Positions 8,260 through 16,458 of a stretch of 64,000 nt of DNA are shown in pieces. The notes under the pieces were generated by a model. It did not search any database. It was not told where the DNA came from and worked only from the letters and a program-made list of their open reading frames with translations. Numbering within the stretch: position 1 is the first letter of the stretch; the number at the start of each line of letters is the position of its first letter. The translations under genes and the position numbers were made by a program. Origin of the DNA: Alphaproteobacteria bacterium (GTDB lineage: Bacteria; Pseudomonadota; Alphaproteobacteria; SP197); assembly GCA_964291265.2 (NCBI GenBank), contig OZ219747.1, positions 3,296,001 through 3,360,000 of the forward strand, written 5' to 3'.

Positions 8260-8700
8260 GCCGAGCGCTCAGGCGGAAGCTTGTTCCCGGATGGACGGTC
8301 CTGGTCCGGTTGAGTTCGTCGATCAGCGCCAGCAGTGCTCTTGTCGTTGCGTTGTTGGCCAGGCCCGAGGATGCCGACCCTGAGGATGCCCTTCCTGTGG
8401 TCCGGCTCGATGCCAGCATCGGTGGTCATCGGGCGGCGATGAGGGTGCGGACGGTGTCGGGTCGCGCCCTTCCCCGGATCACAGGGGTCATCATGCGGGT
8501 TTCGGCTTGTCGTTGTCGGCGAGCTCGCCGACACGGACATGGCTGGCCAGGGTCGAGCGGCGCTCCTCGAGTTCGGCGAGGGTCTCCTCGACGGTGACGG
8601 CGTCGAAGGCGAGGTACGTGAACTCATCGTCGGCGCAGTCGAGCCAGCGATCCTTGATCCGGGTCCCGATCTTCAACGTCAGCGCATACTCACCCAGTGG
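8260..8700 (-). pseudogene. Degraded putative transposase C-terminal remnant
   Basis: Fragments LEERRSTLASHVRVGEL...; IEPDHRKGILRV...LANNATTRALLALIDELNRTRTVHPGT.FRL resemble the C-terminus of a putative transposase family. Multiple frameshifts. Confidence 0.5.
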
Positions 8701-10268
8701 CCTGCGGGTTGTCCTCCTCATCGTGGCCTTCAGCGTCTGCATGATCGCTTCCGGCGCCTTCGACGCATTTGCGGAAACAGGCGACGATGGATCGGCGGGT
8801 GGCGCGTCACCCTCCTGCGCGGAGTGGAACACCTTCGGTTTCTTCGAACACGCCGAGATAATGGATGTCTCCCGCTGCCTCGACGTCGGCGCCGACCCGA
8901 ATGAGCGGGATGAGGATGGATGGATGCCCCTGCACTACGCGGTGGCGTACATTGACACTCCGGCGATTGTCGAGGTGTTGCTCAACGCCGGCGCCGACCT
9001 GAATGCGCGGGGTGGCTTAGGTGGATGGACGCCCCTGCACGGGGCGGCGGCATTAGGCCGAAGTTCCAGGGCTGATCAGGCGCAAGTATATGATAGGAAT
9101 GACATTCGATGGATCTCAGAGGCGTCTGACTGGGTACACTACGGCTTTACGCCGAGGAGTTTGAGTGTTCTTCTCTGGAGCGGCGTGGGCCGCGTAGTGA
9201 CCTTGAAGGGCCCGGCGCCCGGCGAAGTGGAGCGCCACGGTGTTGCGGGTGATGGTGCGCTTCTTGACCTTTCCGACTTCGCGCCGGGGGCTCGTGGAGC
9301 ATGATGACGGGTGGGGGGGACTGGTTGAGGAGGGCTTTGATGCACATGGCTACCGTGCATGGGCGTACCGTGGACGTATGTCAAGCACAAGGTGCATTCA
9401 TACATGGGTACACTGTGAAGCCTGATGAATCAAACAAAGAACGCAAAATCAGTGAGTTGTTGTGAAGATCAGCAGGAAATCGTCCGGAACTTCGGATTAG
9501 GTGACACCCCGGCGGTTGTCGAGGCGCTCCTCGCTGCCGGCGCCGACCTGAATGCGCGGAATGAGGATGGATGGACGCCCCTGCACGGGGCGGCGGCCAA
9601 CAACGACACCCCGGCGGTCGCCGCTGCACCACGCGACGGCAAGATTCATTCGTCGAGACCGCGACATCGACCTCGACACTCCGGCGGTCGTCGAGGTATT
9701 GCTCAACGCGGGCGCCGACCCGAATGCGAGGGATGATGAGGGATGGACGCCTCTGCACAGGGCGGTATTCAACGGCATCCCGGTGGTTGTCGAAGTGTTC
9801 ATCAATGCAGGTGCCGATCTGAATGCGCAGGACCAGTTCGAATTCACGCCTCTGCACAGGGCGGTATTTGAAGTCGGCTACCTATCGGAAACCGCCGAGC
9901 ACTTGGCGGCTATCGAGCTGTTGCTCGACGCCGGCGCCGACCCGAATGTGCGGGATTATGAGGCATCGACGCCCCTGTACATCGCGGCAGGAGACCAAGG
10001 CGACGACAGCTTGGCGGCTCTCGAGCTGTTGCTCAACGCCGGTGCCGACCCGAATGCGCGGGGTAGGAAAGGATGGACGCCCCTGCACGCGGCGGGAATC
10101 CAAAACAACCCGGCGGCTTTCGCCCCGTTGCTAAACGCCAGTGCCGACCCAAATGCGCCGGATGATAAGGGAAATCTTCCCTGGGCGTCGTTCGACAACC
10201 GCCCGACGATTGCCGAGCTGTTGTGCAACGCTGGCTCCGAACATGTCCTTTGCGAGGCTCAACACTAA
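8700..10268 (+). pseudogene. Secreted ankyrin-repeat protein, disrupted by mini-IS and a frameshifting deletion
   Basis: Repeated LLNAGADPNARDxxGWTPLH units; N-cap CAEWNTFGFF...VSRCLDVGADPN. Split by the element at 9058-9495 and a frame change near 9620. Confidence 0.88.
9058..9495 (-). mobile_element. 438-bp internally deleted IS1634 derivative (MITE-like)
   Basis: Terminal IRs CCGAAGTTCC (9058-9067) / GGAACTTCGG (9486-9495); 6-bp direct repeat ATTAGG (9052-9057, 9496-9501). Encodes IS1634 N-terminal (GKVKKRT) and C-terminal (TRPTPLQRRTLKLLGV) remnants only. Confidence 0.88.
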
Positions 10269-10277
10269 TGTCACTAA

Positions 10278-11939
10278 GGGTGCAGTTCTCGTATGGCGAA
10301 GCCAAGTCATTGATTTATCGCGGTTGTACGGTCGCGATGGAGCGGCGAAAACGGGGTTTCGTGACAATTGCCCGTTTCAGGACCGGATTTTGTCACGATG
10401 GCAGGGCTTGGCGGTGGATGCGGGAACGCTCCGCACCGCAAGATGCGATATGATGCTAGCTTGAAACCACAACATCAGGAGCGCTCCCATGTCAGTGTCA
10501 CAGCTTCGGCCTTCCGCGTCCATCGATCTTTCCGGCTTGCCGCCTCGGGTTGTCGAAGCGGTCACGCAAGTGACCGCGGTGTGTCATCGACAGCTTGGTT
10601 CAGAGCGCTCTGCCGAGGCCTTCGAGGAAGCGGAGCGGCGGGTGCTTGAGAGCGTGCACGCGCTTGGCTGCGAGATCCTGGGTGCCTGTGCCGAGGCTCG
10701 GGACGACGGTGCGCCCCGGATCGAGCGGGACGGGCAGAACTGGTTCCGTGTGGCGCCGACGCCGAAGACGATCATGACCTCGCTCGGCCCGGTGACCTTT
10801 CGGCGTGCGCGCTACCGCACCGGCGGGCACCGCCGGTCGCTGATGCCGGTGGACGAAAGCCTGGGCCTCGTCGACGACTACCTGACACGGCCGGCGGCTC
10901 AGCTTGGGCTGATGATGATGGTCCACTGCACGGCGCGGGAAGCGGAGGCGTTCTTCGGCAAGCTCGGCGCCATGACGCCGTCTGTGAGCACCTTGCAGCG
11001 CTTGAGCCTGACCATGCAGGAGCGCTGGGAACGTCTCGGCCCGCAGGCCCTGGATGGCATCCGGGAAGCCGAGGACATTCCGCAGGACGCGGTCACCGCC
11101 TCGGTCTCGCTCGACGGCGTCATGGTGGCGCTGCGGGCCGGCGAGGACGGCCGTAGCGAGGCCTGCTGGCGCGAGGCGGCCTGTGGCACAGTCTCCTTCC
11201 ACGATGCCGACGGTGAGCGCCTGAAGACCGTCTATCTCGGCCGCATGCCCGAGCGCGGCAAGTGCACGCTGAAGGCGCAGCTGGCAAGCGAGGTCGCGCA
11301 TATCAGGCGCGAGCGTCCCGAGATCAGGATCAGCGCCATCGCCGACGCCGCCGCTGACAACTGGACCTTCCTCTCTGATCTTGATCCCGAAACCGAGGTG
11401 ATCGACTTCTGGCATGCCTGCGAGCATCTGCGCGTGGCGGCCGATCATGCAGCGGCGCCCCACTGGTTCGAGAAGTACCGCGAGATCCTGCGTCACGACC
11501 CCCGCGGCATCGACAGGGTGATCCGGGCGCTGCGCCACCTTCGCGACACCGCCAAGCCGGCGGGCCGAGCCGACATCGACAGGGAACTGGCCTTCTTCCG
11601 CAAGCATCGCCACCGCATGCGCTACCACGCACTGAAGCAACAGGGGATCGCCATCGGCTCGGGAGTTGTCGAGGCAGCCAACAAGACCCTCGTCACACAG
11701 CGCATGAAGCGCTCCGGCATGCGCTGGCGCATCGTCGGCGGACAAGCCGTTCTCACCTTCCGCGCCCTCATCAAATCCGGCCGCTTCGAAAGCGCGTGGA
11801 CAGCCATGATCGGGGCAGACGACGCACCAGCCAACGACAACATCAACCCACATCACACCCAGGCGCTGGCAGCATAAGATGAAACAATGGAATTAAGCCC
11901 ATAACTTAAAAGCATAACTGCCATACTAGACTCACACCC
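10278..11939 (+). mobile_element. ISKra4-like insertion sequence, apparently complete
   Basis: Imperfect IRs GGGTGCAGTTCTCGTATGGC / GCCATACTAGACTCACACCC; flanking direct repeat CACTAA (10272-10277, 11940-11945). Confidence 0.8.
10489..11877 (+). CDS. ISKra4/UPF0236-type DDE transposase
   Basis: SLDG, ADAAADNW, IDFWHACEHL, IGSGVVEAANK...RMKRSGMRW motifs; intact 462-aa ORF. Confidence 0.88.
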   Translation: MSVSQLRPSASIDLSGLPPRVVEAVTQVTAVCHRQLGSERSAEAFEEAERRVLESVHALGCEILGACAEARDDGAPRIERDGQNWFRVAPTPKTIMTSLGPVTFRRARYRTGGHRRSLMPVDESLGLVDDYLTRPAAQLGLMMMVHCTAREAEAFFGKLGAMTPSVSTLQRLSLTMQERWERLGPQALDGIREAEDIPQDAVTASVSLDGVMVALRAGEDGRSEACWREAACGTVSFHDADGERLKTVYLGRMPERGKCTLKAQLASEVAHIRRERPEIRISAIADAAADNWTFLSDLDPETEVIDFWHACEHLRVAADHAAAPHWFEKYREILRHDPRGIDRVIRALRHLRDTAKPAGRADIDRELAFFRKHRHRMRYHALKQQGIAIGSGVVEAANKTLVTQRMKRSGMRWRIVGGQAVLTFRALIKSGRFESAWTAMIGADDAPANDNINPHHTQALAA

Positions 11940-11945
11940 CACTAA

Positions 11946-12094
11946 TGAGGCTATGCCTCAGACCGACGAGAGACGTCGCGGAAGGGAAAGGACTCCGCCC
12001 GCTGTTCCGCTCTGCGGTGACCCGCCTGATACAGCCCGAGGGCTGGGTTGGTTATGATAACCATGTGGGGAACCCATCGTTCGGAGTCCAGAAG
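11946..12094 (+). other. Densely structured ~150-nt leader (candidate ncRNA or ssDNA structure)
   Basis: Hairpins at 11946-11960, 11964-11978, 12014-12025, 12032-12045, 12049-12063. Long-range pair GGACTCCG (11990-11997) / CGGAGTCC (12082-12089) covers the RBS. Confidence 0.5.
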
Positions 12095-13832
12095 ATGACG
12101 ATAGCACGGTCTGTTGGCGAGGTCCTTGAGAATCACGTGACGCTGGAGCTTGAGTGTCTGGACCGGCTGTATCTCAACGCCTATGTGCCAATGCTGCAGA
12201 CGGGTGGTGGCGCGGCCTGGTTCTTTCGGGAGGTCCGGGGCAATCCTGTTCCGTCATCGGCTCTGATGGCGCCGATGACGCGGCGCTTTGTGACGCGCCT
12301 GGAGCGGTTTGCCCGGGACCAGGGTGTCGACCTTGTCAGCTTCAGGAAGGGGGAGCGCAAGGATGATGTGACACAGAAGTATCTTCGCCTGTGGTCTGGC
12401 GGTGAAGGTGTCCTTTACGTCGGCAAGGCCCAGGAGAAGGCCCGTGTCCTGCGTACGCAGAAGCGCGTTGATCCGGCGACCGGCAGAGCGTCCTGCGAAT
12501 TGGTTCACAGCACGGCGATGGTCAATGCCTGGTACATCTACATCGTGGACGACGACTTCGGTCCCTGCTTCATCAAGTTCTGTTCCTACTTCCCGTACAA
12601 CGCCAAGCTGTGCCTCAACGGTCACGAATACCTGAAGCGTCAGCTGAGCAAGCGCGGGGTGGCCTTCGAGGCTCTCGACAACGGCATCTGGAGTTGTGCC
12701 GATCCTCGGATCATGCAGGCCGTGGCCGGGGAGATCGATGCCTCACGGATCGACGCGCTGTTCCGCAAGTGGACGGCATGTCTTCCCCATCCCTTCACCG
12801 ACGAGGACGCGATGAGGGGCATCCGCTACGACCTGTCGATTCTCCAGGCGGAGTGTGCGCTCACACAGGTGTTTGACCGTCCTCTTCACGGCCGGATTCT
12901 GTTCGAGGAGATCATGCGCGAGAACCTCGACATCGGCCGTCCTGACCATGTGCAGTTGATCTTCAACCGCCGTATCACACGGCGGACCACCTCGCGGTTC
13001 AGAACCCGCGTCATCACCGACGGCGTGCAGCCGTCGCTGCATGTGGATTACAAGCATTCGCGTATCAAGCAGTACTTCAAGGAAGGCCGTGCCCTGCGAA
13101 CGCAGAAGGTGATCAACAACACGTATGACTTCGGCATCAAGCGCAGACTGATCAACCTCGATGACCTCAAAGCCGTCGCTGCATGTGGATGACAAGCATT
13201 CGCGTATCAAGCAGTACTTCAAGGAAGGCCGTGCCCTGCGAACGCAGAAGGTGATCAACAACACGTATGACTTCGGCATCAAGCGCAGACTGATCAACCT
13301 CGATGACCTCAAGGAGGTCGGCTTCGACGCCACCCGACGTCTTCTCGACGTCCAACGCATCAGTCACGACTGTCCGATCGGAGCAGCCACTTTCGATGCC
13401 CTGCATCAACCTGTCGTCGTCGACGAACGTCGGGTATCCGCCCTGCGCTTCGGTGATCCACGCATCCAGGCAGTCCTCGCAGCCATCCTGCTGCATGTCT
13501 TCCTCCCCATGGGCTTCAACAACCGCCAGATGAGACAAGGCCGTTGCCGATCTCCTGTCGACCGATACCTATGGCTCACGTCAGGCCACCTATGATCTGC
13601 GGCGCCTGCGCCTGCGGGGCCTCATCGAGAGGATACCGTCATCCCATCGCTATCGTCTGACGCAAGAGGGCAGAGGATCGCTCTTGCCTATTGCCGCATC
13701 CACCGGCGGACACTCAGCCCTGCCCTGGCGGCGGCCTTCGATGACAAGGCGCCATCCAGGCTCGGACGCATCCTCCACTCGCTCGATGACGAGGTCAGCA
13801 AACTCTGGGAGGGACAGACCCTTGCCGCCTGA
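12095..13832 (+). pseudogene. Putative transposase of the family often annotated 'MarR family regulator' (C-terminal wHTH), frameshifted
   Basis: HVTLELECLDRLYLN...DFGPCFIKFCSYFPYNAKLCLNGHEY...RIKQYFKEGRALRT...LRFGDPR...YDLRRLRLRGLIERI. Broken by a 142-bp duplication and later frameshifts. Confidence 0.72.
13029..13312. repeat. 142-bp tandem duplication
   Basis: agccgtcgctgcatgtggat...gatgacctcaa at 13029-13170 and 13171-13312; one mismatch seen (gattac/gatgac). Confidence 0.92.
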
Positions 13833-14022
13833 ATATGTCCGTGATGAAAACTTGGCTCATCTGTGCACTATTGCCTTCATTCAAGGAATCTAGTGTGGTA
13901 GACTCTACTCTTCAGTCAATGGCCTGCTACGGAGGTAACGATGGCCGGTAACACCAAAGAACTGCAGTTTTGTTCATGCGCGCCCATAAGCAACTCCACA
14001 TTCTGGTGATCGAGACAACGCC

Positions 14023-15282: not shown

Positions 15283-16141
15283 ATGAAGGCAAAGGAAGTT
15301 TCGCCTCTGCGCCAGAAGACGATCGATGTGATGACGATGAAGGGTCTGTCGTCTGGCACGCAGGAGAACTATCTGCGTGAGATGACGATGTTCGACCTCC
15401 ATACCGGACATCAGCTGGAGAGTCAGACGGGCGAGGCGATCGGGGCCTGGATCCTGGAGCGGATTGGCAAGGGTCTGGCGCCGCGCACGACCAACGTCAC
15501 GGTGACGGCGATCCGCCTGTTCTATGATAGTGTGCTCGGTCAGCCCGAGAAGGTCGAACATCTGCGTTGTCGCCGGGTTCCCGACCGCCTGCCGCGGACG
15601 ATCCCTTCAAGAGGATGTCGAGCACCTGATCCAGGCGTTCACCGACGTACGCTACCGCACGGCAACCGTTGTTGCCTACGGCGCGGCGCTGCGCATCTCG
15701 GAAGTGGTGTCGCTGCAGGTCACGGACATCCGCCGTGAGCAAGGTCTCCTGCACATCCGCGAGAGCAAGGGCCACCACGAGCGCATGGCCTACCTGCCCG
15801 ACGCCGTGCTCAAGGAACTGGAGCGCTACTGGAAGACCACCTGGCCACGTCCCCAAAGCTGGCTCTTCTACAGCCACACGCCCGATACGCCGATCACCGT
15901 GAAAGGACTGCAGGCCGCCTTCCGAAGGGCCCGTGACCAAGTCGGCCTCGATCACGGGGTCACCTTTCACAGTCTGCGGCACGCGGCCGCAACACATCTT
16001 CTCGAAAGAGGTGCGCCGCAGAGTGTCGTGCAGGACGTCCTGGGACACAAGTCTCCGGAGACAACAAGGGTCTATGCCCGCACCACGGGCATCATGTTCC
16101 GCAAGCTCGACCACCCGGTGAAGGGGTTCCTGGCCGCCTGA
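15283..16141 (+). pseudogene. Tyrosine recombinase (IS91-associated type), single frameshift at ~15608
   Basis: N-terminal SPLRQKTID...GLSSGTQENY; catalytic LRISEV, SKG, HSLRHAAATHLLE, LGH...TTRVY in a second frame. Confidence 0.85.
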
Positions 16142-16145
16142 TCCC

Positions 16146-16330
16146 TTGACCCGTCCCACCCCCGGCGTGGCGGACATCATTCGCCACGCCGGACCCGGCT
16201 TCCGCGTCACCCACGCCGGACGGCTGAACGCGCTCTCGTGCGAGGTGCTTGACCGCATCGCATCCTGCCGCACGGCGGAACTCGGCGGTCACCTCTACCA
16301 GTGCACCCGCTGCGAGCGCTTCCATGTCGC
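16146..16330 (+). pseudogene. IS91-family transposase N-terminal Zn-binding fragment
   Basis: VADIIR...IASCRTAELGGHLYQCTRC, directly after the integrase; truncated. Confidence 0.8.
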
Positions 16331-16458
16331 ACCCGAAAGTTCTCTCCGTTCCGCCTCGTCCAGGGTCACCACGTAGCGTTTCATACTCCGGCCTCCGTCC
16401 CGAATGGACGGACAGTCTAGCACCAAATATACGACATATCATTATTGACATGACACTA
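16330..16458 (-). mobile_element. IS630-family left end and transposase N-terminal fragment
   Basis: TAGTGTCATGTCAATAAT end on minus strand; RBS GGAG; MKRYVVTLDEAERRELS from ATG 16384. Confidence 0.68.

Follow-up and report, generated by a model that had tools for sequence, protein, structure and literature searches.

Within the window, the whole stretch of 64,000 nucleotides analysed here, a broken gene lies behind a densely structured leader, and the preliminary description took the two for a mobile element free of terminal inverted repeats (TIRs). The locus raises two questions, namely what kind of enzyme would move such an element and what its folded leader is for. Transposases are classed by catalytic fold as DDE, HUH, tyrosine and serine recombinases, Cas1 and DEDD. 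The present element lies outside IS91, IS200/IS605, IS110 and PF02486 by the membership criteria of those groups, and no description of it was found in the literature searched (ISfinder and subscription journals aside). On our best reading it represents a new class of rolling-circle-type insertion sequence (IS) with an antisense RNA like RNA-OUT, for which we infer both mechanism and RNA. The narrower claim, that the transposase forms a new class, is highly probable.

Ends, copies and target site

The insertion sequence proper (AA...CT) occupies 11944–13891 on the forward strand, between the CT and the AG of a CTAG target, and without an internal duplication would measure ~1.8 kb. The junction words are CTAA at 11942 and CTAG at 13893. 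At the left junction, CT/AA (11942–11945; the slash marks the junction), the word is the same as the Rep_trans/MOBT nick word CT'AA. The right end (13849–13893) follows a conserved pattern, AACTTGGCTCA ... TCAAG-N4-CT/AG, and is presumably terminator-like; it has no conserved hairpin, just CTTGA...TCAAG, 20 nt apart. More probably the element itself runs from 11944 to 13891, and the target supplied the CT and AG outside it. The exact split of CT and AG between element and target would in the simplest partition be flank-CT / AR...CT / AG-flank, without duplication. We infer this absence of duplication, since a two-sided empty allele was not found, either when the joined flanks of 51 loci were compared with the genome itself and the related loci or in relatives and plasmids.

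The genome itself contains two further near-full copies of ~95–98% identity plus several fragments, and in its copies CTAA starts five of eight left ends and CTAG finishes five of seven right ends. In related loci the left end YYAR-C-hairpin-AGACC was present in 75 of 86 and missing from 11, with the junction words CTAA (47), CTAG (22), TTAG (3), CCAG (2) and TTAA (1). Of 80 loci, 72 had a CTAG ≤110 nt past the gene end and eight lacked it, against a background of 0.65 CTAG per kb. Junction-to-junction distances were 1782–1890 nt in 48 related loci, and the ends were conserved together with the gene over a range of 52% to 87% identity.

Five Burkholderiaceae plasmid loci have interiors that are 93–95% or 100% alike and five different left flanks; the copies that are 93–95% alike show sharp boundaries to unrelated left flanks. 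The empty position homologous to the left junction of one copy reads CTAG in four of five element-free plasmids and TAAG in the fifth, and the fourth left-end base (A or G) moves with the element. In the target flank an A stands at −6, a position outside the fixed search pattern, in 42 of 53 loci. The target logos comprise just those loci in which both ends were found by pattern, and because of this their CT and AG are partly circular. Hence the element is real and mobile, with several genome copies, sharp fixed ends, varied flanks, the target A-N-W-N-CT/AG and an empty CTAG at a relative's left junction. As the preliminary description had claimed, it is TIR-less: of the 25 longest inverted pairs listed, none is terminal. 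The comparison of filled and empty sites which it had proposed was borne out at the left junction by the empty CTAG and yielded no two-sided empty allele.

Two candidates were rejected, a palindromic target beyond CTAG and a junction promoter from the right-end TTGACT, the spacing of which is too long by eye. Among the joints listed from Logan contigs, which drop rare forms, there was no circle or empty-site joint.

Several loci depart from the common layout. At G000:C2:898161-896097 degenerate left and right ends lie 2 kb apart around unrelated genes, with no transposase; the enclosed genes resemble by eye a toxin-antitoxin pair of HigB/HigA type, and the locus may be a non-autonomous cargo-carrying derivative. 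Two Rhodococcus copies (L124 and L125) start CT/AC with a doubly changed hairpin stem, and in L125 an IS701-type element begins exactly at the right-end CTAG. Six loci (L038, L041, L043, L057, L068 and L069) keep the structured module and the gene and have no left-end motif within 330 nt. The distant clades L017, L019, L020, L021 and L024 keep the catalytic motifs, with other right ends, no RNA-model match and, where the start is available, a left-end hairpin GCGGC-nnn-GCCGC-AACC.

The left-end hairpin

The leader begins with a near-invariant left end and continues through a variable spacer into a module of ~100 nt, which ends right before the start codon; it appears to consist of two parts, the conserved left-end hairpin and a covarying, branched structure of ~100 nt on the antisense strand. 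The left-end hairpin (11947–11970, forward strand) has a 5-bp stem and a 3-nt loop followed by AGACCGACGAG, and is near-invariant in relatives. Stem variants preserve pairing: GAGGC/GCCTC occurs 98 times, GAGGT/ACCTC 4, GGGGC/GCCCC 3, GCGGC/GCCGC 2 and GAGAC/GTCTC 1, in loci that were not de-duplicated. On the bottom strand 60 of the 75 loops read GNA. The nick word CT'AA, found in 47 of 75 left junctions (CTAG in 22), stands beside the hairpin rather than in its loop. The hairpin is likely to be the recognition site of the transposase, as an origin-like end.

In five of 75 loci (L083, L084, L087, L088 and L105) an inverted second left end lies 30–50 nt past the first; the two make up a long palindrome, which may have arisen by fold-back or by nested insertion.

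The encoded protein

The intact family protein has 531 amino acids and is the sole gene in 1.8 kb. Its broken counterpart in the window (12095–13832, forward strand), with the TBP-fold (Rep_trans-like) domain and C-terminal winged helix predicted for the family, is 92% identical to P0001 over residues 1–362. There are at least 8000 close relatives, and at E ≤ 0.001 the matches comprise 10,974 representatives at 50% identity. The preliminary description had taken the family to be usually annotated as MarR or hypothetical, and our searches agree that it is an unannotated one. Plasmid copies are annotated as hypothetical and relatives as hypothetical or transcriptional regulators; six intact members gave no significant match in Pfam, and none to PF02486 or PF25227 at E ≤ 5. 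No NCBIfam model was matched by the window's two protein pieces, a PDB sequence search gave no significant match, and the ESM Atlas returned unnamed clusters only, one with HTH_5 in 12%. No family member was found in 50,697 phage records. Models of IS91, IS200/IS605 and IS110 in NCBIfam and Pfam were not matched, and an HUH motif was not among the invariant columns.

The predicted structure has a pLDDT of 88.4 for the full protein and 93.7 for the N-domain. In VIA comparisons residues 1–378 aligned with TBP (1mp9) at Z 9.0 and rmsd 3.9 over 175 of 189 residues, with RepDE (4cwe) at Z 7.4 and rmsd 4.7 over 178 residues, model residue 16 falling at chain start 39, and with RepSTK1 (4cij) at Z 7.1 and rmsd 4.5 over 181. 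The Rep Z-scores (7.1–7.4, with 177–181 residues aligned) lie under that of TBP and equal those of phosphoglucomutase domains, which cover only part of the model. Foldseek found no PDB match at E ≤ 0.001; RepSTK1 appeared at E 0.006–0.04 with TM 0.28–0.30, and an unrelated cyclase ranked first. A check of the fold against Rep_trans enzymes, which the preliminary description had suggested, was thus positive by VIA, with middling Z-scores for a predicted model, and negative by Foldseek at this threshold. One viral Foldseek match (A0A2N9QVX7) is common to this family and Rep-Arvir. Residues 383–500 form a winged helix (Z 9.5, rmsd 2.2, 84 aligned), and a large conserved insert interrupts the TBP fold at about residues 31–245.

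D23, Q251, E253, K325, Y327 and R335 are invariant in 25 diverse members, with K329 and E337 at ≥90%. A wider set gave E253 in 101 of 103, Y327 in 99 of 103, K329 in 93 of 102 and E337 in 96 of 102, and the catalytic motifs are also visible in the distant clades at far lower identity. The codons of the predicted active site lie at 12161 (D23), 12851 (E253) and 13073 (Y327). Rep_trans enzymes have a TBP fold, and PMC13107129 gives D46/D142/Y191/E214 as the active site of RepDE and E25/D207/Y283/E303 for RepSNJ2; for RelSt3 the residues given in PMC6499999 are D72/D177/Y252/K254/E280. D23, E253, Y327, K329 and E337 follow the active-site order of these three enzymes, an equivalence drawn from motif order and range starts, not superposition. 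The family motif is KQYxK, and the RIKQYFK...LRT that had first pointed to a tyrosine nickase is present in the sequence. The protein is modelled as a TBP-fold domain with D23, E253 and E337 as predicted metal ligands and Y327 as the predicted active-site tyrosine, and a winged helix that would bind the ends. The left junction is an independent pointer to the enzyme family, for it matches the conserved nick word of Rep_trans origins and MOBT oriTs, CT'AA (PMC9371924), at which cutting is predicted. The earlier proposal of a Rep_trans-like tyrosine enzyme with a C-terminal winged helix gains from the conserved residues, the winged-helix match and the TBP/Rep fold alignments, and judged by these models the single protein is likely to be a Rep_trans-type tyrosine nickase.

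The folded leader module

The hairpins noted in the preliminary description exist (11947–11959, 11965–11977, 12014–12025, 12033–12044, 12050–12062 and 12067–12075), as does its long-range pair GGACTCCG (11990–11997) with CGGAGTCC (12082–12089) over the GGAG. The sequences of its 'competing' pair, GCGGAA (11978–11983) and TTCCGC (12005–12010), are present too; the pair, however, is not conserved, either in the own-genome left ends shown, four of eight of which read GCGTGA, or in close relatives. The conserved partner of GTTCC (12004–12008) is GGAAC (12069–12073). Likewise the hairpin at 11965–11977 is not conserved in the other own-genome copies and close relatives.

As top-strand RNA the 168-nt leader is no stabler than shuffled sequences (z −0.75; −2.59 with DNA parameters). 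The significant folding unit is 11986–12091, with z −2.43 on the top and −3.68 on the bottom strand, and related modules have a mean fold z of −4.3 (68 loci). In a sequence-only alignment of 57 of 77 modules, made without the subclade of the window, L012/L015 and near-duplicates, two helices show two-sided changes in 14 of their 18 pairs. None of 500 shuffles did as well, and pairing was 25–41% when the strands were slid; the covariation that the preliminary description had asked after is thus present.

The strand on which the structure acts was read from several features. In the closing stem the top-strand ratio of A.C to G.T is 64:9 (29:3 in 38 representatives), and this excess of A.C on top means wobble pairs on the bottom strand. 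Tetraloops (n = 45) read UNCG in 15 and GNRA in six cases on the bottom strand against none and two on the top, and across 75 modules there were 25 occurrences of cUUCGg on the bottom strand and none on the top. A bottom-strand TAnnnT lies in codons 2–3 in 78 of 84 loci, compared with a mean of 1.6% and a maximum of 8% in control windows, which lay within the gene and not at gene starts. This −10 box has a TG extension in 48 of 63, and its offset would have transcription start on the outermost base of the closing stem. The stretch after the stem is enriched in U (0.33 versus 0.20). A consensus promoter scan gave no full −35/−10 pair, and Rfam gave no match for the window (one chance match, E 2.6) or for 20 loci. 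Strand energies are equal on average, the top being lower in 19 of 38, and neither helix P2 (A.C:G.T 16:20) nor helix P3 (10:17) is biased towards the bottom strand.

The window's own subclade has a variant fold, which the RNA model from other clades misses. Its members are too invariant for covariation testing, yet the −10 box is kept. Their consensus shows one or two two-sided changes only, with 19 G.T against 6 A.C on the top strand, and in all seven members tested z is lower for the bottom than for the top strand, in two of them by a narrow margin.

These data indicate that a conserved structure, with signatures of RNA, is selected on the strand opposite the mRNA. Hiding of the ribosome-binding site in the mRNA, one of the roles first envisaged, is therefore at most a side effect, although the leader is indeed structured and covarying. 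It follows, too, that the module is unlikely to be a top-strand single-stranded DNA origin, another earlier suggestion; the part that resembles an origin is the left end, which is separate and near-invariant.

From its sequence signatures the folded module is likely to be transcribed from the opposite strand, as a small RNA that would hold the transposase off. This RNA of ~105 nt (11982–12091, reverse strand) is predicted from covariation, strand bias, loops and the bottom-strand fold z of −3.68. Its predicted closing stem pairs 12089–12082 with 11997–11990 and an inner stem 12073–12069 with 12008–12004; predicted hairpins at 12062–12050, 12044–12033 and 12025–12014 are followed by a pyrimidine tail. 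An outward extended −10 promoter, TG-C-TATCGT, is predicted in codons 2–4 of the transposase (12098–12106, reverse strand) with +1 at 12091–12089. The Shine-Dalgarno GGAG of the transposase (12083–12086, forward strand) is conserved in relatives, and the predicted RNA is complementary to it at its 5′ end. IS10 RNA-OUT and IS200 art200 are known cases of an antisense RNA that controls transposase translation (PMC4513863).

Other roles for the leader are less probable. A guide RNA with loops that track the target, as first raised, was rejected: across 53 loci the longest match of leader and flank was 5.72 versus 5.70 in shuffles on the left (97/200) and 5.79 versus 5.82 on the right (132/200), and five copies with one identical leader lie in five unrelated flanks. 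That the leader instead acts in cis, as an mRNA structure hiding the ribosome-binding site or as a top-strand single-strand origin, is quite improbable; the closing stem does form over the GGAG on the top strand as well, with mean energies equal on both strands, and IS200 has such a cis stem (PMC4513863), but wobble bias, UUCG loops and −10 box all indicate the bottom strand. It is distinctly unlikely that the antisense RNA is a transposase-bound cofactor which holds the ends or licenses nicking, in a ribonucleoprotein without a programmable guide. Such a role would account for a four-helix junction and conserved sequence blocks that exceed the needs of antisense pairing, and for the large insert in the TBP fold. 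It sits poorly with distant clades (L017–L022) that have the same catalytic motifs, short leaders and no RNA-model match, and perfect complementarity across the Shine-Dalgarno has a precedent in antisense control (PMC4513863). The combined proposal, of TBP-fold Rep_trans nickase transposons that insert one strand by a rolling circle at A-N-W-N-CT^AG as a ribonucleoprotein with the outward four-helix RNA, we regard as unlikely.

Proposed transposition and repression

We consider it reasonably probable that the locus is a defective multi-copy IS which inserts in CTAG by a rolling-circle route with a Rep_trans-type nickase, and that an antisense RNA from its leader represses translation. In this scheme Y327 would nick the top strand at the left-end CT^AR and remain on the 5′ end, and host replication from the 3′-OH would displace the top strand until transfer is terminated by another nick, at the CT^AG of the right end. 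The displaced strand, directly or via a circle whose junction remakes CT^AR, would be joined, with no duplication, to a target that carries a nick at CT^AG. A missed termination would bring downstream DNA along. The extended −10 promoter in codons 2–4 would give rise to the outward four-helix RNA of ~105 nt, which would pair with the transposase mRNA across its 5′ UTR and Shine-Dalgarno in the manner of IS10 RNA-OUT and IS200 art200.

In plasmid CP003090.1 two copies share 7458 identical bp, which start with the left end's first base and continue to 5.6 kb past the right end. The second copy is joined to a CTAG target, the downstream half of which was not found in that record. This structure is suggestive, as it fits left-end initiation with read-through; recombination between two copies gives the same picture. 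IS91 offers a precedent, being TIR-less with a tetranucleotide target, initiating and terminating ends and one-ended events (PMC13181058). By analogy the element may work like IS91 with a Rep_trans-type enzyme, and CP003090.1 and this precedent together lead us to favour top-strand nicking at CT^AR and rolling-circle transfer.

Three other routes were weighed against this one. IS200/IS605 elements have a hairpin by the cut, no TIRs and an upstream target preference. The present element shares these traits, with its small hairpin beside the left-end cut, and the same enzyme might work by a non-replicative single-strand 'peel and paste', with cuts at both ends on exposed single-stranded DNA, the top strand being circularised and the donor resealed; we think this unlikely, given a right end with only CTTGA...TCAAG, the read-through-like structure in CP003090.1 and the fact that Rep_trans enzymes initiate rolling-circle replication (PMC13107129). 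Cutting of the bottom strand, with a start at the right-end CT^AG and a stop at the left-end YT^AG, would follow the layout of IS91, whose origin lies downstream of the gene (PMC13181058). The palindromic CTAG makes the junctions identical either way and the bottom-strand GNA loops would suit this polarity; nevertheless it is improbable, for at the left end it is the top strand that reads CT'AA, this end is the better conserved of the two, and the CP003090.1 event retains a new left junction and overruns the right end. Finally, since TBP chains outscore Rep chains, the protein could be cargo, TBP-like and serving in DNA binding or replication, while another enzyme moves the element. This is very hard to reconcile with a single gene in 1.8 kb, with ends that are conserved alongside it and with the nick word of this enzyme family at those ends.

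Relationship to known systems

The element recalls IS110/IS1111, which are TIR-less and have a short shared core starting CT and a structured non-coding end; in contrast to these, no DEDD/RuvC fold was seen here, and the leader–flank match was no better than shuffled. Unlike IS200/IS605 it shows no match to a Y1 HUH TnpA, and its conserved hairpin is at the left end only, not both. With Rep_trans enzymes (PF02486: RepC/RepD/RepDE, RepSTK1) and MOBT (RelSt3, NicK) the family shares the predicted TBP fold, the order D, D/E, Y-x-K, E and CT'AA at the cut, which here is a predicted one. It differs from them in having no PF02486 match, a large insert and a C-terminal winged helix; CT'AA lies 5′ of the hairpin here and in the hairpin loop there, and the gene is the only one in a two-ended chromosomal element of multiple copies, whereas theirs has a replicon or conjugation context. 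Rep-Arvir (DUF7845/PF25227, RepSNJ2) likewise fuses a TBP-fold nickase to a MarR-like winged helix, but is an archaeal viral and plasmid replication initiator with the motif KHYYM (PMC13107129); the present family is bacterial and transposing, with KQYxK and no PF25227 match. IS91/ISCR resemble the element in the lack of TIRs and of target duplication (here presumed), the tetranucleotide target and, on the reading proposed here, functionally different ends and one-ended events (PMC13181058). Their enzyme, however, is HUH with an origin downstream of the gene; in the present family no HUH fold came up, the best fold is TBP and the origin-like end is upstream. The predicted RNA is like IS10 RNA-OUT and IS200 art200, small RNAs that are antisense to the 5′ UTR of the transposase and its ribosome-binding site (PMC4513863), and departs from them in its four-helix branched fold, a predicted start upstream of the start codon and no Rfam match.

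If true, a Rep_trans/TBP-fold transposase adds a class to those recognised, and a large one, with the 10,974 representatives counted above. Transposition would be tied to the initiators of plasmids and phages, to MOBT relaxases and to the archaeal Rep-Arvir; read-through could account for gene capture and plasmid fusions, and with its one protein the system would be a compact means of inserting a single strand at a short target. Rfam has no match to the predicted antisense RNA, which would be structured and have a defined predicted promoter.

The window copy and its surroundings

The copy in the window is dead, as the preliminary description had recognised. It carries a frame-shifting tandem duplication of 142 bp (13029–13312, forward strand), the repeat being seen in the sequence, and two further single-base frame changes near 13537 and near 13665. 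The codon at 13103 (position 337) encodes Gln where the family has Glu, a predicted metal ligand, and the local motif is LRTQK where the family reads LRTET. The duplication is absent from contigs of runs X2 and X4 (joint 13049–13192). Contigs of runs X1 and X3 join window position 12053 to 12789, an internally deleted derivative.

A separate ISKra4-family IS adjoins the element on the left (10278–11939, forward strand; NF033572, E 6.9e-46, below its cut-off). Ten full-length genome copies of it were found, most with 8-bp target duplications. Here it is flanked by the direct repeat CACTAA, which takes in the first bases of the element, and it is likely to have inserted afterwards into the element's left junction. 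Further upstream (8507–10268) ankyrin-repeat-like genes are broken by IS remnants. Downstream (15283–16376) lie a tyrosine recombinase and then a short frame which by eye resembles the zinc-binding start of an IS91-type transposase.
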